Source: Myxococcota bacterium (GTDB lineage: Bacteria > Myxococcota_A > UBA9160 > UBA6930). From it: a stretch of 64,000 nucleotides of DNA. Both the position numbers and the translations under genes were made by a program. Position 1 is the stretch's first letter, and each line of letters opens with the position of its first letter. The DNA lies in contig OZ245015.1 in the NCBI GenBank assembly GCA_965223705.1, positions 1,984,001 through 2,048,000 on the forward strand, given 5' to 3'. Positions 27,961-42,738 of the stretch are shown one piece after another. Below the pieces are notes generated by a model. The model saw nothing but the letters and a program-made list of their open reading frames with translations. It was not told the DNA's origin and made no database searches.

Positions 27961-28116
27961 ATGAAGCGTTGGACCATTTTCTTGCTCGGCCTTCTCATCG
28001 TCGGCGCCGGTTGGTACGTCCTCGCTTCGGGCCCGCGCCCCACACAAGACAGTCACCCCGAGATCGACGCGTCGTCGCGAGAGAAACTCCAGCGCGAACT
28101 CGAGCGCGGCGATTGA
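27961..28116 (+). CDS. Small single-TM hypothetical protein (51 aa)
   Basis: MKRWTIFLLGLLIVGAGWYVL followed by a charged tail. GAGGG RBS. Stop overlaps the dgt start (TGATG). Confidence 0.65.
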   Translation: MKRWTIFLLGLLIVGAGWYVLASGPRPTQDSHPEIDASSREKLQRELERGD

Positions 28117-29264
28117 TGGGCTCGCTGCGCGAGCAGTACGAAGAGCGGGAGGCAACTCGCCTCGCCGGCTACGCCTTGACCGCACGCGCGTCGCGCGGAC
28201 GCTTGCACCCCGAAGAAGGTCACGCCTACCGCACGGATTTCCAGCGAGACCGCGACCGCATCGTGCATTCCCGGGCGTTTCGGCGCCTCGAATACAAGAC
28301 CCAGGTATTCATCTTTCACGAAGGCGACCACTACCGGAACCGGTTGACCCACACTCTCGAAGCGAGCCAGATCGCCCGCACGATCGCCCGCGTGTTGCGT
28401 GCGAACGAGGACCTCGCCGAAGCCATCGTGCTGGCACACGACTTGGGGCATACGCCGTTCGGCCACGCCGGCGAGCACGCGCTGGCGCGATTGATGGAAA
28501 GCGATGGCGGCTTCGACCACAACCGCCAGACGCTCCGCATCGTCGATTGGCTGGAAGAGCGCTACCCGGCTTTCCGCGGACTCAACCTCACCGACGAGAC
28601 GCGCGAGGGGATCCTGAAGCACGGGTCGAAATGGGACCACCCGGTACCCACGCCGCCACTCGCTGCGAACCCGAGTCTCGAAGCACAGCTCGCCGACGCG
28701 TCGGACGAGATCGCGTACCTGAATCACGACCTCGACGACGGCTTGCGCTCTGGCCTCCTCACCCGCGAACAGCTCGAAGTGCTCTCGCTCTGGCGGGAGG
28801 CGACGCGCCTCGCGAGGGATCGTCACGGGGATCTCGAAAAGGCTGGCGCGCATCCGGCGATCAGCGCGTTGATCGACATGCTGACGACCGATCTCGTTCA
28901 CGCGACGATCGCGCGACTCGAAGAACAGGGCTGTGAGAGCGTCGACGACGTGCGCAACGCTCCGACTCGGGTCGCTGTCTACTCCGACGCCGTTGTCGCC
29001 GCCCGGCGAGAGCTCCGGGAGTTTCTGTTCGACAATTTGTACTACCACCCTCGTGTGCTTCGGATGAGCCGCAAAGCCGAGCGTATCCTGACCGATCTCT
29101 TCGGCATCTATCGCGAAGAACCGCGGCAGCTGCCCGCGCGCGTGACGCGGAATTTCGCCGATGTGGGCGAGGCTCGGGCCATCGCGGACTACATCGCCGG
29201 CATGACCGACCGGTTTGCCCTTTCCGAGCACCGAAAACTCTTCGATCCGCACGAACCGGTCTGA
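28116..29264 (+). CDS. dgt: Deoxyguanosinetriphosphate triphosphohydrolase (dGTPase-like, HD domain)
   Basis: FQRDRDRI.HS.AFRRL..KTQV, RLTHTLE, HDLGH.PFGH.GE, D.IAY..HD, DYIAGMTD. Confidence 0.95.
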   Translation: MGSLREQYEEREATRLAGYALTARASRGRLHPEEGHAYRTDFQRDRDRIVHSRAFRRLEYKTQVFIFHEGDHYRNRLTHTLEASQIARTIARVLRANEDLAEAIVLAHDLGHTPFGHAGEHALARLMESDGGFDHNRQTLRIVDWLEERYPAFRGLNLTDETREGILKHGSKWDHPVPTPPLAANPSLEAQLADASDEIAYLNHDLDDGLRSGLLTREQLEVLSLWREATRLARDRHGDLEKAGAHPAISALIDMLTTDLVHATIARLEEQGCESVDDVRNAPTRVAVYSDAVVAARRELREFLFDNLYYHPRVLRMSRKAERILTDLFGIYREEPRQLPARVTRNFADVGEARAIADYIAGMTDRFALSEHRKLFDPHEPV

Positions 29265-29324
29265 TATAAGCGGCAGCGAGCGGGTGATCTATCGTCCCCC
29301 GACAAGAGACAGGGGTCGTGAACA

Positions 29325-30515
29325 ATGAGCTTGGCGCAAGCCCTCGAACGTGCGGCTCGGGCGATGCCCGCGACCGCGGATCAGATCCGCCCTGCGAACG
29401 GCGATCCGCACCGGCTTTTGAGTGAACTCGAGGCCGACGCGGCGGGAGAAGTCCTCGCGTGGCTGTTGCGCGAAGAGCCCGACGACGCGGCGGAGTTGGT
29501 CGAGGTCTGGCTCGACGAGCCGTCCGGGCGCGACCTGGTGCTGCAACTCGACGAGGGCGGTCTGCCGAAGGCGAGCCGCAAGCTCCTTCGCCGAGCGCGC
29601 CACGCTTTGCGCTCGAAGGGGATCGATGTGCCCGAAACGCCGCCGGTCGCGCGGGTGGCGTCGCTCCGCAAAGTCGACGACGAGTTCCGCACCGCGGCGC
29701 TCTCGCCGATCGATCCGGCCGGAGCGCGGATGGCCTACCTCGTCGAACCCCATCCGAGTGGCGGCGCTCGCTTGTTCGAGATCGGCTTGTCGAGCTCGAA
29801 AGGTGTCTTGGGCGTGCGGGTGTACTCCGCGAGTCGCAGCAAGATTCGCAGCTTCCTGAAAGAACTGACCGGTCGAGCAGGACAGCCCGGCGTGACCGCT
29901 CCGCCTGACGCGGTCCGGGCGCTGTTCGCGCGGGCGCTCGCGAAGCAGCCCGAGAGCCGCCCCGTGCCGGGCACCGTGGCGGAATGGCGCTCACAGCTCA
30001 TGCCACCCGAGGGCGAGACTCCGGCGACCCCGGCGGAGCGCGTGGTCGAAGCCTTGGGGGAGGTCGCCGCGGACGCCGACGGCGCCATCGAGCTCGCGCG
30101 CACCGCGCGGGTGGGCCCTTGGCCGAGAGACCCGAAAGACCTCGAAGCGCTCGCGGAGAAACTCCGCGATCAGGCGGCCGGGCCGATCGTGTTGAGCCCG
30201 GCTCAGCGCAAAGAGCAGGCGGCCACGTTGATCGACGAGGCTCTGGACGAGTGGTTCGGGGGTGCTGGGGGCGAAGAGATGGCTACCCTGTACCGCGAGT
30301 CCGCGTTCATATTGTGGCAACGCGGCGAAGAAGACACGGCCCGGACCTGTCTGGCCGCAGCCCGGGCTTTCGAAGAGCAACCCCCCACGCGCAATCCCAT
30401 GGCGCGCTTCTTGGTAGAAACACCGCTCGCCGCCGTCCTCGCCGAAGCGACCGGAACGGCCCCCGAGAGCGCTGGAGAAGCGACCGAGGAAGGCACGTCG
30501 CTCATCACCCCCTAA
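29325..30515 (+). CDS. Hypothetical protein (396 aa)
   Basis: Long ORF with typical codon pattern in a co-directional run. Notable segments K..RK..RRA.H.LRSKG and SPIDP.G.R. No family recognised with confidence. Confidence 0.8.
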   Translation: MSLAQALERAARAMPATADQIRPANGDPHRLLSELEADAAGEVLAWLLREEPDDAAELVEVWLDEPSGRDLVLQLDEGGLPKASRKLLRRARHALRSKGIDVPETPPVARVASLRKVDDEFRTAALSPIDPAGARMAYLVEPHPSGGARLFEIGLSSSKGVLGVRVYSASRSKIRSFLKELTGRAGQPGVTAPPDAVRALFARALAKQPESRPVPGTVAEWRSQLMPPEGETPATPAERVVEALGEVAADADGAIELARTARVGPWPRDPKDLEALAEKLRDQAAGPIVLSPAQRKEQAATLIDEALDEWFGGAGGEEMATLYRESAFILWQRGEEDTARTCLAAARAFEEQPPTRNPMARFLVETPLAAVLAEATGTAPESAGEATEEGTSLITP

Positions 30516-30535
30516 AGGTAGGTAGGCCGCATGCA

Positions 30536-30609
30536 GGCCAGAGGCGTGCGTCCCCCAGATGTCGGGGGACCGCCTGGCCCAAAAAACTCGCCTCGCGCCC
30601 ATGCGAGGC
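30536..30609. other. Structured intergenic element: long hairpin, A6 run, second hairpin
   Basis: Nested pairing GGCC/AGGCG/GTCCCCC with GGGGGAC/CGCCT/GGCC (30536-30579), AAAAAA (30581-30586), then GCCTCGC-N6-GCGAGGC (30590-30609). Confidence 0.55.
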
Positions 30610-30627
30610 TACGAAGGTTGATGCGTC

Positions 30628-33375
30628 ATGAGACGAGGCTTTGGCCGACGACGTCGGCGACAGAACAGCGACGAACTCCCGGGATTCGATCCCGCCGAAC
30701 TCGAAAAAGTAACGGAGGCGGGCCTGGTTTCGGCTCCACTCGAGAGGCGCGATCTCTCCGCCGTTCCCGCTCACATGGCTGTCGTCGGGACCGCGCAGGA
30801 TGAAGAAAAACAAATCGAGTGGTGGGTCATACGGGCGGAAGGTGTCGCAGAAGCGGTGGCGGCTGCCCTCGTGGTGCGCGACGCCGCGCCCGAAGCGAAC
30901 GCCGGGGTAACCCGGCACATCCTCGCGGTCGCGAATGGCGCGAGTGATTCGGATCGTCGCTCGCTCTCGTGTTTCGGGGCGCTTCCCGCCGAAGTGACGA
31001 GTCATGTCCTCGAGCGCGACATCGCTTTGGCCGGGCCGCCTCCCGAAGAGCGCTCGCCGGTGCCGGTCGATTGGTTCGTTTCCGCGGTCGGCGACGAGGC
31101 CGTACGACTCCTCGCCGATCGCGCGTTGGCTGGCCTCCGCGGCTTGGCGGGGAAATACGCGGGGTCGCTCCGCGCCGATGCTCGTTCGGTGGAACTGTGC
31201 GTCTCCGCACGCCCGGTAGCGGCGCTGCAACTCGAAGGTGAAGCGTTGTCGCTCGTCACGCTTCTTCCGCAACGGTCCGTCGCGCCGCTAGGGAGCGAGT
31301 CGCTGGCCGATGCCCTCGATCGTCTCGAGGGCAACCTGCGCCGCCGGTTGAACGACCGCAAAATACGAGACGGCGAGGAAGGTCTCCGCGGCCGGATGGG
31401 GCCCGTCTTGGCGAGCCACTGTGGCGTCCGGAGCGCTGCGCCGTGGCCTTTGACCGGAGAAGATCCGGACCCGCTCGATTGGGTGGGCGTCGACGCCTCG
31501 GGAGCAGTCGTGTTTGGAACCGCTCGGCTGTCGCTCGGAATCCCCGACCTATTGGCACTGCTCGCCGGCGTGGCGCGCGCGCGTCAGCTCCTGCCGGTGA
31601 TCTTGTCCGATGTCCACGGCCCGATTCGCCCCGACGAAGTGCGACTCGTGATCGCTGCCGAGAGCTACGGCGAGGGAGTCGCGACGCTACTTCCCCGACT
31701 GCGATTCCCCGTCGAATCGCTGTCGATCACGGATATCGCCGCGCAGTCGCCTCCGCTCGCAGCGAAAGCCAAGGCCTCGGGGACCGCCGCTCCTTCCGCC
31801 GGCACCGACGACAAGAGTCGACGCGGCCGAAGTCGGCGCGGGCGCGGGCGGCGACGAACGCCGGACGCGCCGCCGACCGAGGCACCCGCGTCGGAGCCCG
31901 AGGCTTCCGCAGAAGTCGACGCCGAAACATCCGAGCCTGCAGAGCCGGCCATCGAGGAGTTCTCGCTGTTCGACCTCGATGACGACAATGGCGACGACGG
32001 CGCGAGCCGCCGGCGCCGCCGTCGGGGCCGTCGCCGAAGTGGTGGACGGAGCCGGTCCGACGATCAGGGCGACGGCGAGGACGGTTCGGGCGAAGCTCCA
32101 GGGGCCGCAGAGAGCTCGCGCGCCGAAAAGAGCGCCGCAGGGACATCGGACGCAGACGGTGAGGACGACGCCGATGTCGACGACGAGCAGCTCCTCGGCC
32201 TCGATCCGGATGCGCCCGAACCCGAAGATTCTGTCGACGTTCGCTACGAGGACGCGGAGCTCGACGAAGAGCCTCTGACCGAGTCGGAGCAATTGCGGCT
32301 CGAGCGGGAGCGCCGACGTCTCGCCCGCATGGCGACACACGGAAAGAAGGAGCGCGCCGAAGAAGGCGACGAGGAACCGGATACCGCGGACGAGCCCGAC
32401 GGCTTGCCCCGGGGGCGGCCCGCGATCTTGGCCCACGCCGATCGACAGTCGCTGATCGCTGCGACGGTGCTCGCGCGGGACGTGCGCAACGTCGAGGGTG
32501 TGTGGGTCTATCCGCAGGACGAGCTGATGACGTTCTTTCGCGGTGTCGCAACCGATCTGCGCGAAAACACGCCGATTTTCGTCATTGGATTCTCGGCGAA
32601 GCCCAGCCGCGACGCGATTCAGGCCGCCGCACTCTACCGGGGGCGGCTCGTCTGGTTCGACCACCACGAGTGGCCGCCCGAGGACGAAGGCGCCATGGCC
32701 GAGGCTGTCGGTGCTGGTCGGCTGTATCTCACACCGGGCGCGGAAGGGCCGCTCGCTCCCGTGCTCTCTCAATGCAAGCGGCGGAGCCGCTTCTCGGACA
32801 AACTCGTCGATCTCGCTACGGGTCGTTTCACGCAGCACGACTATGAACGCTGGGGCCGGCTCTGGTGGAAGCGACTCGGCGACCTGGCGGCGCAGTCCGG
32901 CCCCGTAGGCAACGCCCTCGATCCGCTCTTCAGCGGCCGGCCCTCGGACCTCGCGCGGGAAGCGGCCAAGCAGCCGACACCGGATCCGCCCGACGAGCTG
33001 GCGTACGCCCTCGGGCGCGATTTTCGGATCGTTCACTTCGGTGGGTTCGGCCTTGCGGTCGTTGTGGTTCCCGAGCCGCTCGACCTGCATTTGACGACCC
33101 GCATCGTGCGGGAACGCCACGGGCTCGCTCTGTCCCTCGGCCTGCGCGAAGGTGGCGAGGCCATCGTTCTGGGAAGCGACGACGCCACAGGTCGCCGTTC
33201 CCTCGATTGCAGCGCGATGGTCGACCATCTGGCGGGGAAGTTCTCCTGGGCGGAAGTGCTGCCCGACGATGACCATGTGGCGAGGCTTCGGGTCCGCGAC
33301 TTGGCGCTCTATCCCGAGCGACTCGAGGAACTCGTCAGCGACATCGCGATGGGTCGATCGATCCTCGAGGGCTGA
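30628..33375 (+). CDS. Large multidomain protein: degenerate nuclease-like N-terminal region, low-complexity Arg/acidic linker, degenerate DHH/DHHA1 domain
   Basis: 915-aa ORF. C-terminal AILAHAD...WFDHHEW. Central RRGRSRRGRGRRR and SRRRRRRGRRR blocks among D/E-rich tracts. Confidence 0.75.
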   Translation: MRRGFGRRRRRQNSDELPGFDPAELEKVTEAGLVSAPLERRDLSAVPAHMAVVGTAQDEEKQIEWWVIRAEGVAEAVAAALVVRDAAPEANAGVTRHILAVANGASDSDRRSLSCFGALPAEVTSHVLERDIALAGPPPEERSPVPVDWFVSAVGDEAVRLLADRALAGLRGLAGKYAGSLRADARSVELCVSARPVAALQLEGEALSLVTLLPQRSVAPLGSESLADALDRLEGNLRRRLNDRKIRDGEEGLRGRMGPVLASHCGVRSAAPWPLTGEDPDPLDWVGVDASGAVVFGTARLSLGIPDLLALLAGVARARQLLPVILSDVHGPIRPDEVRLVIAAESYGEGVATLLPRLRFPVESLSITDIAAQSPPLAAKAKASGTAAPSAGTDDKSRRGRSRRGRGRRRTPDAPPTEAPASEPEASAEVDAETSEPAEPAIEEFSLFDLDDDNGDDGASRRRRRRGRRRSGGRSRSDDQGDGEDGSGEAPGAAESSRAEKSAAGTSDADGEDDADVDDEQLLGLDPDAPEPEDSVDVRYEDAELDEEPLTESEQLRLERERRRLARMATHGKKERAEEGDEEPDTADEPDGLPRGRPAILAHADRQSLIAATVLARDVRNVEGVWVYPQDELMTFFRGVATDLRENTPIFVIGFSAKPSRDAIQAAALYRGRLVWFDHHEWPPEDEGAMAEAVGAGRLYLTPGAEGPLAPVLSQCKRRSRFSDKLVDLATGRFTQHDYERWGRLWWKRLGDLAAQSGPVGNALDPLFSGRPSDLAREAAKQPTPDPPDELAYALGRDFRIVHFGGFGLAVVVVPEPLDLHLTTRIVRERHGLALSLGLREGGEAIVLGSDDATGRRSLDCSAMVDHLAGKFSWAEVLPDDDHVARLRVRDLALYPERLEELVSDIAMGRSILEG

Positions 33376-33394
33376 GCCCGGAACAAGGGCGGCG

Positions 33395-34156
33395 ATGGCA
33401 CGCGCCAATCTCGTCGAGGTGTTCTCGTCGATCCAGGGTGAAGGACCGAGCGTCGGCCAAAGGACGATCTTCGTCCGATTCGGCGGTTGCGACTTGCGCT
33501 GCGCGTGGTGCGATTCGCCGCACACCTGGAAGCCCCACCGCGCTTGGCGCGTCGAGGAAGAGCCGGGAAGTGCCGCCTTCTCTCAGTACGAGAATCCGGC
33601 ATCGCTCGACCAGGTGGTCGCTGCCGTCGCGGGGCTCGATCCCGCTCGCCACCGCTGGATCAGTCTCACCGGCGGCGAGCCGTTGTTGCAGCCGGCGCTC
33701 CCCGAGTTCGCCGCGGCCTTGGCCCAGTGGGGTACTCCGCTGCATCTCGAGACCCACGGTCTCGCTTGGCAGGCATTGCCCGCGGTGCTGCCCCGCTTGG
33801 GCTTCGTCTCGATGGATTGGAAGCTCGCCTCGGACGTGGAGCGGGCGAAGGGTGCATCGGGTGCCCCGTTCGCGGCAGAGCACCGAAGATTCCTCGCCGA
33901 AGCACGCGGGGTCGCTACGTGCGTCAAGCTCGTGTTGACCGCGCGGAGCGAAGACGCAGAGCTGATGGAGGCCTTCGAGAGCGTGGCCGAGCTGGCGCCC
34001 GACGCGACGCTGATCCTTCAGCCCGTGACCCCGACGGCCGACTTCGACAGGCGCCCCGATCCGGGACGCGTTCACGAGGTCGCGCGGCGCGCCGGGGACT
34101 GGGTTGCCGATGTCCGGGTCATTCCTCAGACCCACGTACTGTACGACGTTCTCTAG
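33395..34156 (+). CDS. queE: 7-carboxy-7-deazaguanine synthase QueE (radical SAM)
   Basis: EVFSSIQGEG, FVRFGGCDLRCAWCD, TGGEPLLQ, LETHG, RVIPQTH. Confidence 0.9.
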   Translation: MARANLVEVFSSIQGEGPSVGQRTIFVRFGGCDLRCAWCDSPHTWKPHRAWRVEEEPGSAAFSQYENPASLDQVVAAVAGLDPARHRWISLTGGEPLLQPALPEFAAALAQWGTPLHLETHGLAWQALPAVLPRLGFVSMDWKLASDVERAKGASGAPFAAEHRRFLAEARGVATCVKLVLTARSEDAELMEAFESVAELAPDATLILQPVTPTADFDRRPDPGRVHEVARRAGDWVADVRVIPQTHVLYDVL

Positions 34157-34683
34157 CGGTGGTCGGTCAGCCGTCCGCGGACAGCATCGAGGAGCGATAG
34201 CGCGTCGCCCTCGGGCGGCGCGGCAAGTCGCAGGCCCGGGAGACAGCCGGCGCGTTCACCGGCTTCGAGGTCGCGCGAGGAGTCTCCGATGACGAAGCTG
34301 CGTCGGAGGTCTGCGTTGAGCTCGTCGCGCGCGCGGAAGAGCAGACCCGGTTCGGGTTTCCGGCAGGCGCAGCCTTCGTCGGGACGATGTGGGCACCAGT
34401 AAGTCGCGGCGATCGGAACGCCGGTGCAAGCGAGGTCGCGCAGGAGGCGCCTCTGGAAGCGCCAAAAATCCGCTTCCTCGAAATACCCGCGTCCGATCCC
34501 GCTCTGATTCGTCACGATGGCCAAGCGGTAGCCGGCATCCGAGAGCATCCTGCACGCGAGAAAGGCACCCGGAAGCGGCGCGTAGTCGGACAGCTTGTGG
34601 TTGTAGCCTCGGTCCTCGACGAGGGTGCCGTCGCGATCGAGAAAAACGAAGGGTCGCTGTGCGGGTGCCGCGAGATCCGACAT
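34153..34683 (-). CDS. gmhB: D-glycero-D-manno-heptose 1,7-bisphosphate phosphatase (HAD IIIA)
   Basis: FLDRDGTL, VTNQSGIGRGY, CPH....C.CRKP, VIGD...D. Confidence 0.88.
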   Translation of the reverse strand: MSDLAAPAQRPFVFLDRDGTLVEDRGYNHKLSDYAPLPGAFLACRMLSDAGYRLAIVTNQSGIGRGYFEEADFWRFQRRLLRDLACTGVPIAATYWCPHRPDEGCACRKPEPGLLFRARDELNADLRRSFVIGDSSRDLEAGERAGCLPGLRLAAPPEGDALSLLDAVRGRLTDHR

Positions 34684-36749: not shown

Positions 36750-37735
36750 GGGGACACGGCTCCGGCGCGCTCGGGCGGCGCTCCTTCCGGCACGACGGTG
36801 GCGAGAAAGCGCAGCAGATGCACGCGCTGCTTCGCACCCGACGCGGCCGGAAAGCGCTTCTCGTCGGTGATCAGGCTGACTTCCTGTCCCACTGAAAGCG
36901 CGGCAACCACCTCGGACGCCGCGTCTCGCACCGAACGTTCGAACGCGCGATCCGCTCGCCGTTTCGCCGTTCGCAAGCGCACGCAACGACTGGCGGCATG
37001 TTCCGGTTCACTCTCCCGCACGAACAGCCGGTGCTCGCGGACCGAGCGCGGCCAGTGCACGCGCCGCAGCGGATCGCCCGTGGCGAACTCGCGGAGCAGC
37101 GTCGCTTCGGGCGGTTTCTCACCGCCCGGGATCGGGTGACGCCCGTCGCCGTCCGAGCGCGTCAAATCCCAGGGCGAGCGTCGCAGAATCTCCGGGAAAA
37201 CGAGCGCTTCTTCGGGCGCTTCGATCCGCAGCGACTTGCTGAAGAGTCCGAAGGGGAAGCGCGTCGATGCGCGGAAGCCGGCGAACGCGATGCGCCCGCG
37301 TCGCTCGGGCACGACGCGATACACGCGCTGTACGGTCTCGCCCGGACCGATTCGCAGGGCGAAGACGCGCCCGACGGATTGGCCGTGGTACGCATCCGGC
37401 CCTACGAGATCTTCCACGACAACCGCGTACGCCGGGAAGCGGCGTTGACTGTTGGTGAGTTCGAGTGCGACGGGTGTCGCCGTCCCACAATAGATTTCGT
37501 TCGGATAACGTCGGCGCACTTCGAGGCCGCGCAAGGCGGCTTCCGAGAAGACGCCTGAAAAAATGAGGAAGCCTAAGAGGGCGGCGAACAAGAGGTAGAG
37601 CAAGTTGTTGCCGGTGTTGAGAGCCGCGAAACCGACGGCAAAGCAAATGCCCGAGAACACCCAACCGGCGCGCGTGGGGCGGAGGGATCGCGGGGGCCGA
37701 AGCGCTCGGCGGATTCCCGCGAGCACCCGGTTCAA
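36746..37735 (-). CDS. DUF58 domain protein
   Basis: AALNTGNNLLYL, TRFPFGLF.K, LREF..GD..RRVHW. Confidence 0.92.
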   Translation of the reverse strand: MNRVLAGIRRALRPPRSLRPTRAGWVFSGICFAVGFAALNTGNNLLYLLFAALLGFLIFSGVFSEAALRGLEVRRRYPNEIYCGTATPVALELTNSQRRFPAYAVVVEDLVGPDAYHGQSVGRVFALRIGPGETVQRVYRVVPERRGRIAFAGFRASTRFPFGLFSKSLRIEAPEEALVFPEILRRSPWDLTRSDGDGRHPIPGGEKPPEATLLREFATGDPLRRVHWPRSVREHRLFVRESEPEHAASRCVRLRTAKRRADRAFERSVRDAASEVVAALSVGQEVSLITDEKRFPAASGAKQRVHLLRFLATVVPEGAPPERAGAVSP

Positions 37736-38682
37736 AGCGGGACCGGAATCGACTCGAGAATCTCTTCGACCAACCAACGCGTGTGGGACGCGCTGGTTTG
37801 ACCCGAATCGAGGATCAGCCGGTGGGCCAACACGGGTTGCGCGGTTTCGCGGACGTCTTCGGGGATGCAATAGGCGCGCCCGTCGAGCAGCGCCCGAGCC
37901 TGAGCCGAAGCGCGATGCGCCAACGCCCCGCGCGTCGAGACCCCGACGGCGATGTCGTCTCGGTCGCGGGTCGCCGCTGCGATGTCGAGCAAGTACCGAA
38001 GCACCGCGTCGTCGAACTTGACGCGTTCGCTCGCGCTCCGCAGCCCGAGAATCTCTTCCACCGAAAGGACCGGGCTGACGTCCACGACGTCGACCACAGT
38101 ATCTCCGCGCAGGACCGCAAGTTCGTCCTCTCGTTCGGGATGGCCGAGTTCGAGACGGCGCTGGAAGCGATCGAGCTGGGATTCGGGAAGCGGGTACGTG
38201 CCGTGATGCTCGAACGGATTCTGCGTGGCGATCACGAAGAATGGATCCGGCAGCACGTGTCGTTCTCCGTCGACCGTCACGCCGCCTTCCGCCATCGCTT
38301 CGAGCAGCGCCGACTGCGTTTTCGGGCTGGCCCGGTTGATCTCATCCGCCAACACGATCTGCGCGAAAATCGGTCCCGGAGAAAAGCGCAACGCCCCGAC
38401 CATGGCGCCGTCTCGGAACTCCGGGAGGACGCCACCGATCACGTCGCTCGGCAACAGGTCGCTCGTGAACTGGACGCGCTGGAACGTGGCCGCGCAGGCG
38501 CCCGCGAGCGCTCGCGCCAGCGTCGTCTTGCCCACGCCCGGCACGTCCTCGATCAACACGTGACCGCCGCTCACGAACGCTTCGACGGCCGAGCGAACGA
38601 TCGCTCGCTTTCCGCACACGGCTTTTTCAATTTCATCGCACAGTCGCGCGGCCTGCGCCGCCGCTTCTGTGGGATCCGGCAC
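37732..38682 (-). CDS. MoxR family AAA+ ATPase
   Basis: GHVLIEDVPGVGKT, QFTSDLLPSD, DEINRASPKTQSALLEAM, ATQNP, LPESQLDRF. Confidence 0.95.
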   Translation of the reverse strand: MPDPTEAAAQAARLCDEIEKAVCGKRAIVRSAVEAFVSGGHVLIEDVPGVGKTTLARALAGACAATFQRVQFTSDLLPSDVIGGVLPEFRDGAMVGALRFSPGPIFAQIVLADEINRASPKTQSALLEAMAEGGVTVDGERHVLPDPFFVIATQNPFEHHGTYPLPESQLDRFQRRLELGHPEREDELAVLRGDTVVDVVDVSPVLSVEEILGLRSASERVKFDDAVLRYLLDIAAATRDRDDIAVGVSTRGALAHRASAQARALLDGRAYCIPEDVRETAQPVLAHRLILDSGQTSASHTRWLVEEILESIPVPL

Positions 38683-38819
38683 ATGAGACAACGGACACCT
38701 CGGCTCCGTACCTCTTCGGATCGTGGGGATTTTCGCTGAATGCGCCGCGCGCTCTCGGAGGATCGTGAGTCGGCAATTGACTCGCAAGGAAGGCCTCGAA
38801 GCTGCGGCGGGTCTAGCGG

Positions 38820-41715: not shown

Positions 41716-42738
41716 ATGATCCTTGGTATCTCGGGACCGAACGCGGCGGGCAAGGGCGAGGCGATTTCGTTCCTGCGCGCGCGCAGCTTCGAAGTGCATT
41801 CGTTGTCCGACGTGCTGCGGGACGAACTCGTTCGCCGCGGTGAAACCGAAAGCCGAGAACGGATGATTGCTCTCGGTCGCGAGTTGCGGCGCGAAGGTGG
41901 CCCGGGAGTCCTGGCCGAGCGCATTGCTTCGAAGCTCCATCCCGAGCGCAATCACGCGATCGATTCGATCCGGCACCCGGTCGAGGTCGACGTCCTGCGC
42001 GCACTCCATCCGAGCTTTCGTCTCATCTGGATCGACGCGCCCCTCGAACAACGCTTCCAACGCATCCGCGACCGCGACCGACCGGGCGACCCCGAGAGTC
42101 TCGCGGAACTGCAACGACTCGAAGGCGCCGAACTCGGAAGCGAGGACCCCGCGGCGCAGCAGCTCCTCGCCGTTCGCGACTGCGCCGACGAACGGATCGA
42201 AAACCGGAGCGATCTCGACGCGCTCTACACATCGCTGCAGGCCGTCCTAAAAAAAGGGCTCTACTTTGAGAGGCCCGGCTGGGATGCCTACTTCATGGAC
42301 ATCGCCCGCGTCGTCGCGTCCCGGTCGAACTGCGTGAAACGCAAGGTCGCCGCGGTGATCACGCTCGACCGGCGCATTATCGCGACGGGCTACAACGGCA
42401 CGCCCCGGGGCGTCCGCAACTGCAACGAGGGCGGCTGCCCGCGCTGTAACAGCTTCGCACCGGGTGGGACCCAGCTGGGCGAGTGTCTGTGCTCCCACGG
42501 CGAAGAGAACGCCATCGTCCAGGCCGCCTACCACGGCGTTTCCGTAAAAGGGGCGACCCTCTACACGACGTGTTGCCCATGCCTGCTCTGCACGAAAATG
42601 GTCATCAACGCCGGCATTTCCGAGGTCGTCTACAACGCGGATTACCCGCTGGGGGATCTATCCCTCGAACTTCTGGAAGCTTCGGGTGTGAAGGTGCGGC
42701 AGTACACGAGCGCGGCCGCCGAGCCCCCGCCGGGATAA
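41716..42738 (+). CDS. Fusion of P-loop NMP-kinase-like domain and dCMP deaminase
   Basis: N-terminal GISGPNAAGKG and IDSIR. C-terminal RPGWDAYFM, SRSNC, GYNG, HGEENAI, PCLLC. Confidence 0.9.
   Translation: MILGISGPNAAGKGEAISFLRARSFEVHSLSDVLRDELVRRGETESRERMIALGRELRREGGPGVLAERIASKLHPERNHAIDSIRHPVEVDVLRALHPSFRLIWIDAPLEQRFQRIRDRDRPGDPESLAELQRLEGAELGSEDPAAQQLLAVRDCADERIENRSDLDALYTSLQAVLKKGLYFERPGWDAYFMDIARVVASRSNCVKRKVAAVITLDRRIIATGYNGTPRGVRNCNEGGCPRCNSFAPGGTQLGECLCSHGEENAIVQAAYHGVSVKGATLYTTCCPCLLCTKMVINAGISEVVYNADYPLGDLSLELLEASGVKVRQYTSAAAEPPPG

Follow-up and report, generated by a model that had tools for sequence, protein, structure and literature searches.

What is a protein for that is assembled from three nuclease-like folds, each short of a full set of catalytic residues, and that is carried by nearly every genome of its class? 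The question is raised by a gene on the forward strand of a 64,000-nucleotide stretch (hereafter the window) from a Myxococcota bacterium of the class UBA9160 (GenBank assembly GCA_965223705.1, contig OZ245015.1, positions 1,984,001 to 2,048,000). An earlier note, made from the letters of the window alone, had described at 30628-33375 (+) a 915-amino-acid (aa) open reading frame that joins a degenerate NucS-like region, an RNase E-like charged linker and a degenerate DHH-DHHA1 domain, and the frame is present with all the strings that the note quoted. Its product, P0001, is an undescribed architecture assembled from known folds, of the pseudonuclease-scaffold kind, and, as judged from sequences and structural models, it is probably a non-catalytic nucleic-acid-binding scaffold. 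The note had already inferred a catalytically reduced scaffold, and that inference is supported by a family-wide loss of key catalytic residues: the motif II position of the DHH domain is glycine in 166/166 proteins, the ExK motif of the NucS-like domain is absent across 149 sequences, and conserved basic residues stand in both modules. The gene is divided as follows.

30628..33375 (+): the whole gene, 915 aa (open reading frame, orthologues, DNA contigs)
30628..30663 (+): residues 1-12, conserved N-terminal arginine tag (mean column conservation 0.74, alignment A1)
30679..31023 (+): residues 18-132, domain 1, PD-(D/E)xK-like fold (AlphaFold2 model)
31060..31368 (+): residues 145-247, domain 2, YjbR/CyaY/MotA-C-like fold (VIA fold matches, conservation)
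31369..31743 (+): residues 248-372, domain 3, NucS-C-like PD-(D/E)xK fold (Foldseek, VIA, alignment)
31744..32412 (+): residues 373-595, low-complexity linker of alternating Arg and acidic blocks (composition, conservation)
31951..31977 (+): residues 442-450, conserved linker motif (strict pattern among proteins of the own order)
32413..32988 (+): residues 596-787, DHH domain (AlphaFold2 model, fold matches, alignments)
32989..33372 (+): residues 788-915, DHHA1 domain without GGGH (fold matches, alignments)

The relatives against which these parts were read fall into four groups, which emerged from 156 matches in a search of the whole library with the C-terminal module: group A is the protein's own order, group B the other order of the class at about 40% identity, group C consists of 936-968 aa proteins from a separate three-genome phylum (present in 3/3), and group D of 330-aa proteins that stand alone, found in metagenomes. 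A quick tree of 59 rows, among them 25 of the 147 group A rows, sets each group apart on one side of a branch, and because that tree is quick and unrooted and its long branches meet, no order of events is claimed.

The DHH-DHHA1 assignment of the C-terminal module held firm, with a confident AlphaFold2 model of residues 590-915 (pLDDT 95.5), 59 Foldseek matches at E <= 0.001 in which a DHH and then a DHHA1 fold is encountered, and a top VIA match with a Z of 13.1 (root-mean-square deviation, rmsd, 8.6; 304 aligned). The active site needs a more differentiated account. The characterised enzyme NrnA requires D24, D26, D80, D156, H20, H103 and H104, and its D80N D156N mutant is inactive with dinucleotide binding retained (PMC9757072; this and the other papers cited are drawn on in part). 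Among 147 own-order proteins, the kept residues are H603 (129), D605 (143), D678 (147), H679 (143), H680 (130) and D738 (147), the last of which is invariant in 166/166 when group B is included and stands, as judged by position, at the place expected for motif IV (NrnA D156); motifs I-III are in register with three RecJ sequences in a weak alignment (E 0.013, probability 3.4%). The substitution of the motif II Asp by glycine (Gly654), which the note had read in the single copy, is fixed in 147/147 own-order and 19/19 other-order proteins; glycine occurs there in group D as well, and Asp in 4/4 of group C. Motif I was read as HADRQS, which is correct for the window's own copy but not for the family, since the own-order consensus is HADRDS, with Asp in 81 and Glu in 16 of 147 at position 607 (97/147 acidic; Q607 in the own copy), and H603 is mostly Arg in the other order. 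The GGGH motif, a selection criterion in DHHA1 for NrnB/COG2404 (PMC12709177), had been read as DDDH; an alignment with the lineage that keeps QGHEN as reference places this His at residue 881 and not at H883 of DDDH, so that it is lost, and GH is kept only in group C (4/4), which with HxDxDG, the motif II Asp and DH also in place retains a near-intact DHH site. The alignment of orthologues cuts both ways for the earlier description: the losses of the ExK Glu and of motif II are fixed, but motif I and DHH are better kept than in P0001 itself, and more of the site survives than that description allowed, H603, D605, H679, H680 and D738 being kept in 88-100% of the 147. This pattern would fit a site from which catalysis was dropped and in which binding was kept, and residual activity is possible given the conserved pocket. 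The most conserved residues of the protein are largely basic, including R160, R165, R182, R254 and R300 of the N-terminal module; R617, R718, R719, R721 and K725 are kept in 146-147 of 147, and the basic patch RRSRF at 718-722 (RRSRF-x-x-K) is invariant in groups A and B and missing from C and D. The standalone group D relatives L055:8001-8996 and L059:8001-8987 carry a more fully degenerate DHH-DHHA1 in which DHH reads SAR.

The five kept residues H603, D605, H679, H680 and D738 (129, 143, 143, 130 and 147 of 147) are also what an enzyme would show, and the protein might still work as a DHH exonuclease or diribonuclease, of an atypical one-metal or rewired type, in place of a missing RecJ or nanoRNase, which we hold to be unlikely. 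The distant group C orthologue with its HxDxDG, motif II Asp, DH and GH points the same way, and so do the gaps in the genomes: in the own genome (95% complete, 2 contigs) there is neither a Pfam DHH match, against 13/14 controls that have one, nor an Orn over the cut-off, and its single PF01612 match is RNase D-sized, so none is NrnC-sized, while RNase J over the cut-off was found in 0/31 class genomes and Orn in 1/41 genomes, that one with stops. Pfam DHH matches over the cut-off occur in 18/81 class genomes, where those read are patchy NrnA-like fusions or a pyrophosphatase-like protein and not RecJ. What weighs against an enzyme is that the metal-bridging Asp is missing from 166/166 proteins, that the second motif I Asp is acidic in only 97/147, that the GGGH His is lost and H603 is mostly Arg in the other order, and that a different protein could be the diribonuclease. 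The latter is a 198-aa Orn-like DEDDh protein (G000:C1:1111183-1111776, minus strand), which lies below the Orn cut-off, is a candidate unrecognised diribonuclease, and has weak matches in 23/23 own-order genomes and 0/18 of the other order. Motif scans of the genome proved unreliable, as they missed RecR, Rho and XseA, which other searches did find, and only their MutL match and the Orn-like sequence are used here. Genome G014 (one contig, 97% complete) gave no full-length Rho match; G000, G218 and G228 have one.

The N-terminal module is modelled with confidence as well (AlphaFold2, residues 1-374, pLDDT 94.2), and here the earlier domain map was right in the segments that it named but had missed two further folded domains in residues 18-247. 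For domain 3, the top 5/5 Foldseek matches of the N-terminal model are EndoMS/NucS (best E 3.7e-4), and VIA aligns it to NucS with Z 6.8, rmsd 2.8 and 102 aligned residues, the alignment being confined to residues 253-372 and the preceding domain being closest to YjbR/CyaY folds. In the alignment of 149 sequences, E250 is kept in 125/149 and D284 in 146/149, whereas at the ExK positions, whose spacing is taken from the earlier note, the Glu (298) is Ala in 106/149 and otherwise another small residue, and the Lys (300) is Arg in 147/149; the reading of residues 248-372 as a NucS-like segment without ExK is thereby confirmed by both folds and alignment. Group C carries the same N-terminal module (hidden Markov model E 2e-20), with Gln and Arg at the ExK positions. 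Domain 2 has 9t2w as its top VIA match (Z 8.2, rmsd 3.0, 99 aligned), scores Z 6.2 against YjbR 2fki and Z 5.9 against MotA-C 5jlt, and conserves the Arg and Lys residues R160, R165, K176, R182 and R238; YjbR/MmcQ (PF04237) gave 0 Pfam matches to it, and the fold scores of Z 6.2-8.2 are tied with frataxin-like rows. YjbR-like domains are predicted to bind DNA like MotA-C (PMC7641849). Domain 1 reaches a middling VIA Z of 5.0-5.7 to Can1, XisH and PaqCI, is without a conserved catalytic Asp or ExK in the alignment, and it matches domain 3 in a profile alignment of 91 columns (E 0.004, probability 8.6%). Two word-based searches for standalone N-terminal modules found none, but such searches are too insensitive to demonstrate absence. 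The top Atlas look-alikes of the module (score 0.91), which are hypothetical proteins of 363-470 aa from Acidobacteriota without a common Pfam family in 30/30 matches, may be its standalone form. Weak NucS_C matches were seen in 191-221 aa frames of two distant-phylum genomes (L175, L176).

Between the two modules lies the linker, which the earlier note had put at roughly 220 aa of alternating Arg and acidic blocks and which indeed measures 223 aa, with a charge blockiness of z = 8.3 against 200 shuffles; composition and poor conservation predict that it is disordered. Near-duplicates included, the median length is 264 aa for the 152 proteins of group A and 218 aa for the 19 of group B, at about 16% Arg and 25% Asp plus Glu, with a median blockiness z of 7.2 for the first 40 of group A and of 2.7 for group B. 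In group C the long charged region precedes both modules at the N-terminus, and what connects the N-terminal module to the DHH module is a short linker, so that the composition of the charged region would matter more than its position. The label 'RNase E-like' is accurate as to composition and charge pattern but not as to homology. In Caulobacter, similar charge blocks are what drives the condensates of RNase E (PMC10412687), and this likeness is the foundation of an RNA-side alternative, in which the linker forms condensates like the ribonucleoprotein bodies that bacteria form (BR-bodies), the dead DHH-DHHA1 domain keeps hold of RNA ends or nanoRNAs and an RNA-decay enzyme docks on the linker motif, the protein perhaps providing in trans a scaffold tail in place of the one missing from the short RNase E/G of the class. 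Both the scaffold and its outsourced-tail form are possible, if rather doubtful. The class has a single RNase E/G copy in 60/61 genomes (open frames of 451-827 aa), that of the own genome has only about 100 acidic tail residues, and the DHH module is of nanoRNase size; like the C-terminal scaffold of RNase E, the linker has Arg-rich blocks in alternation with acidic ones and carries short motifs that are conserved. Unlike that scaffold, it has no sequence homology to RNase E and no attached RNase E catalytic domain, and the N-terminal folds belong mostly to DNA-acting families. The outsourced tail is not a discriminating test, because many genomes of other classes with only a 500-600 aa RNase G-type frame lack the gene. 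For the lean towards RNA in the earlier note there is no specific evidence; DNA is suggested at least as strongly by the YjbR-like domain and by the lack of recJ throughout the class.

The linker motif may dock a partner. Its consensus, F-E-E-hydrophobic-S-x-F-D-L, is found in 115/133 group A proteins and 0/19 of group B, and it resembles the clamp motif of actinobacterial NucS, [EK]-[LY]-[TR]-L-F (PMC6159515, PMC8228993). As a candidate clamp-binding site it is only a lead: an interaction prediction of DnaN with residues 428-462 scored 0.05 against a mark of 0.32 and is no evidence either way, and the idea is weakened because the Leu position varies and the motif is absent from the other order, and further because the genome's own MutS has a canonical Q-type motif.

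By the tests made, the protein is not a member of the Cdc45/archaeal RecJ homologues, of NucS, of NrnA/B or of the RecJ family, although it shares something with each. With EndoMS/NucS it shares the C-terminal RecB-like fold of domain 3, but it is without ExK, its preceding domain looks YjbR/CyaY-like rather than like the NucS beta-barrel, its motif is internal with a varying Leu position, and its genome has both MutS and MutL; NucS was found in 0/3 class genomes. The small DHH-DHHA1 phosphoesterases (NrnB/COG2404, NrnA, pAp phosphatase) are alike in size, fold, HxDxD-type motif I and DHH, and clusters of DHH phosphoesterases are among the Atlas look-alikes scoring 0.94-0.96, whereas P0001 and its orthologues have lost the motif II Asp and GGGH and carry a large N-terminal fusion, with a best Pfam DHH E of 0.025 among 35 homologues; set beside an active enzyme of this kind, P0001 has the DHH motif but its own copy lacks the DxD of motif I (D605, Q607). 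Bacterial RecJ has the same DHH-DHHA1 fold, motifs I-III in register and a complementary presence in the phylum, but the protein has neither a TIGR00644 match nor the OB-fold extension nor the catalytic Asp. The closest analogy is to Cdc45 and to those homologues of RecJ that are inactivated in archaea (arCOG00428, arCOG00432), DHH-DHHA1 proteins which have lost catalytic residues and are strongly conserved (PMC3307487), and RecJ-Cdc45 and CMG chains are among the fold matches; P0001 differs in being bacterial, likened by fold, and in sharing its chain with two PD-(D/E)xK-like folds, a YjbR-like domain and the linker. The unfamiliarity of the architecture, which the earlier note had remarked on, is upheld by 0 Pfam and 0 NCBIfam families for P0001 and its pieces in a profile library search; among 35 homologues, DHH matches to Pfam were weak and came in 4 (E 0.025-0.22), none over the cut-off. 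PDB sequence searches with three alignments gave only low-complexity or chance matches, PHROGs gave 2 unnamed single-member matches among 15, tblastn against phages no match to the protein, and a viral fold search no match at E <= 0.001. Titles and abstract openings of the literature on UBA9160, on inactive DHH/RecJ/Cdc45, on YjbR-nuclease and on DHH-NucS fusions, a coverage outside which subscription papers mostly fall, do not describe this architecture.

A recJ match (TIGR00644) was found in 0/39 class genomes and 0/3 group C genomes, with none in the own genome, against 142/162 other genomes of the phylum (the samples for recJ and for the gene itself overlap but are not identical), and this complementary pattern stands while RecR persists, RecR and XseA being present in 5/5 genomes tested. 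RecJ is nearly ubiquitous, missing from mollicutes and mycobacteria (PMC1193525), and inactivated DHH proteins that serve as structural parts of replication provide a precedent (PMC3307487). By this analogy we tentatively propose that the protein may be a housekeeping pseudonuclease scaffold that works on DNA, in DNA maintenance and in the manner of Cdc45. Its N-terminal module, with a dead PD-(D/E)xK, a YjbR-like and a dead NucS-like domain, would grip duplex or branched nucleic acid through its conserved arginines without cutting it; the DHH-DHHA1 module, presumably derived from a once-active small DHH phosphoesterase that has lost its metal-bridging Asp, would be a cleft that binds ends or single strands and perhaps retains one metal; the Arg/acidic linker would add weak multivalent binding and probably condensate-like clustering, and in one order its motif would dock a partner. 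In a lineage without RecJ, the whole would belong to the structural components of an assembly for DNA replication or repair, and other enzymes, such as exonuclease VII, would do the cutting. A bolder version, in which the class without RecJ keeps a single copy of a protein that fuses three dead nuclease folds with a DNA-binding domain and a linker that forms condensates, as a structural replication or repair part and a bacterial counterpart of the RecJ-to-Cdc45 transition with the distant phylum as a near-active intermediate, would be an improbable but instructive case.

Several points weigh against the DNA proposal. The RecJ pattern amounts to one or two evolutionary events among kin that are not independent, 20/162 other genomes of the phylum are also without a recJ match, and loss of RecJ needs no such gene, because these recJ-less genomes lie outside the class, where the gene was found in 0. 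XseA (5/5) could buffer the loss of RecJ, the recJ-less group C genomes are three of unstated completeness, and the Orn-like protein below the cut-off exists in the own order. The DHH module is NrnA/NrnB-sized (325 aa) without the RecJ OB fold, its highest VIA matches (a DHH domain from an archaeon, a DHH protein of H. pylori and RecJ-Cdc45) are tied within 1 Z unit, and the YjbR/CyaY fold also occurs, ranking equally high, in proteins that do not bind DNA. Finally, the neighbours are genes of nucleotide and tRNA metabolism (dgt, queE, and greA in the distant phylum), not of repair.

That the gene is real and widespread in its class can be said more plainly. A single DNA contig of run X1 covers 29200-34300 with 1 differing letter and 0 gaps, which shows the frame not to be an assembly artefact, and contigs of run X3 agree with it in pieces; both runs come from one study, and X1 is possibly the source sample. 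The choice of start codon is supported by a conserved N-terminus, MRRxFGRRRR, among the orthologues. Among 8000 scored candidates there were 513 full-length homologues; the 120 homologue matches listed have no precomputed Pfam domain, and their source names are 'hypothetical protein' from metagenome-assembled genomes of Myxococcota, Myxococcales or Deltaproteobacteria. Of the relatives, 41/41 carry the gene; a search with the C-terminal module found it in 38/38 class genomes from both orders and in 0/163 other genomes of the phylum, and a search with the N-terminal alignment in 46/48 class genomes, both misses being contig-cut frames in the C-terminal search, with weak matches at E 0.004 in 2/203 genomes outside the class. 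An artefact or decaying pseudogene is ruled out by orthologue conservation together with the spanning contigs, and a recent paralogue by the lack of a second match in the own genome below E 0.03. A 68%-complete genome (G025:C1) has the N- and C-terminal halves of the gene far apart (37532-38761 and 736965-738317), either as a split gene or through misassembly, and is the only locus without queE.

The surroundings of the gene are conserved too, and three neighbours in the window recur.

28116..29264 (+): dgt, dGTP triphosphohydrolase (NCBIfam NF002326, 484 bits, over the cut-off; 19/21 loci)
29325..30515 (+): 396-aa conserved protein with no Pfam or NCBIfam match over the cut-off (upstream in 15/21 loci)
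33395..34156 (+): queE-like radical SAM gene, 19 nucleotides past the stop of the target gene (best matches QueE models, below the cut-off)

Across both orders, queE lies directly downstream in 20/21 loci and dgt upstream in 19/21, joined by an aminotransferase gene in 17/21 and cutA in 11/21. No sigma-70 promoter-like site was found near the gene, and terminator-like sites are at chance level. The neighbourhood looks like a housekeeping string rather than a defence island, and a mobile defence island is ruled out by single copy, fixed synteny and class-wide presence; the 'new system' of the earlier note reduces to a single-copy, housekeeping-like gene in a conserved string, with no support for a multi-gene system. 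In the distant phylum, the group C gene sits before greA in the 2/2 loci with downstream DNA, and a queE-like gene is found 2.5 kb downstream in locus L051.

This gene order invites a reading in which the pseudo-active DHH site is a sensor that binds a guanine nucleotide or dinucleotide and regulates the dGTPase, QueE or their expression, the partly kept pocket residues and the adjacency of dgt and queE in both orders, with queE near the gene even in L051, being in its favour. We regard it as quite improbable: the adjacency may be plain inheritance, because the gene order is widely conserved (the aminotransferase included), greA is the neighbour in the distant phylum, and the standalone relatives stand among unrelated genes. 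The same greA neighbour, with weak fold matches to RNA polymerase subunit 5 and MotA-C, could suggest a transcription accessory whose dead restriction-like folds and MotA-C-like domain contact DNA and RNA polymerase, a very improbable role, as the matches, at background with a Z under 6.5 and an E over 0.01, come from folds that are common. Around the group D genes we take the flanking genes to be maf, a dual-specificity phosphatase gene and pfk, the order maf, phosphatase, group D gene, pfk being shared by two metagenome loci. An unannotated gene of about 120 aa lies between the 396-aa protein and the target gene in 8/21 loci, for example L043:7052-7411 (+), and is absent from the window. Further along the window, at about 41720-42738 (+), lies a frame that looks like the fusion of a P-loop kinase domain with a domain of the dCMP deaminase kind.

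For the biology of this uncultured class, the finding means first of all that a large and near-universal marker gene has gone without any annotation. In its four lineages the active site has decayed to different degrees (near-intact, partly dead, dead and standalone), so that the change from nuclease to scaffold can be put to the test side by side. If the protein stands in for RecJ, it would represent a bacterial way of maintaining DNA without a nearly universal gene; if it is instead an RNA scaffold, it would be a condensate organiser uncoupled from RNase E; and either outcome would bear on how nanoRNA is cleared in cells without a recognisable Orn, NrnA/B or NrnC.

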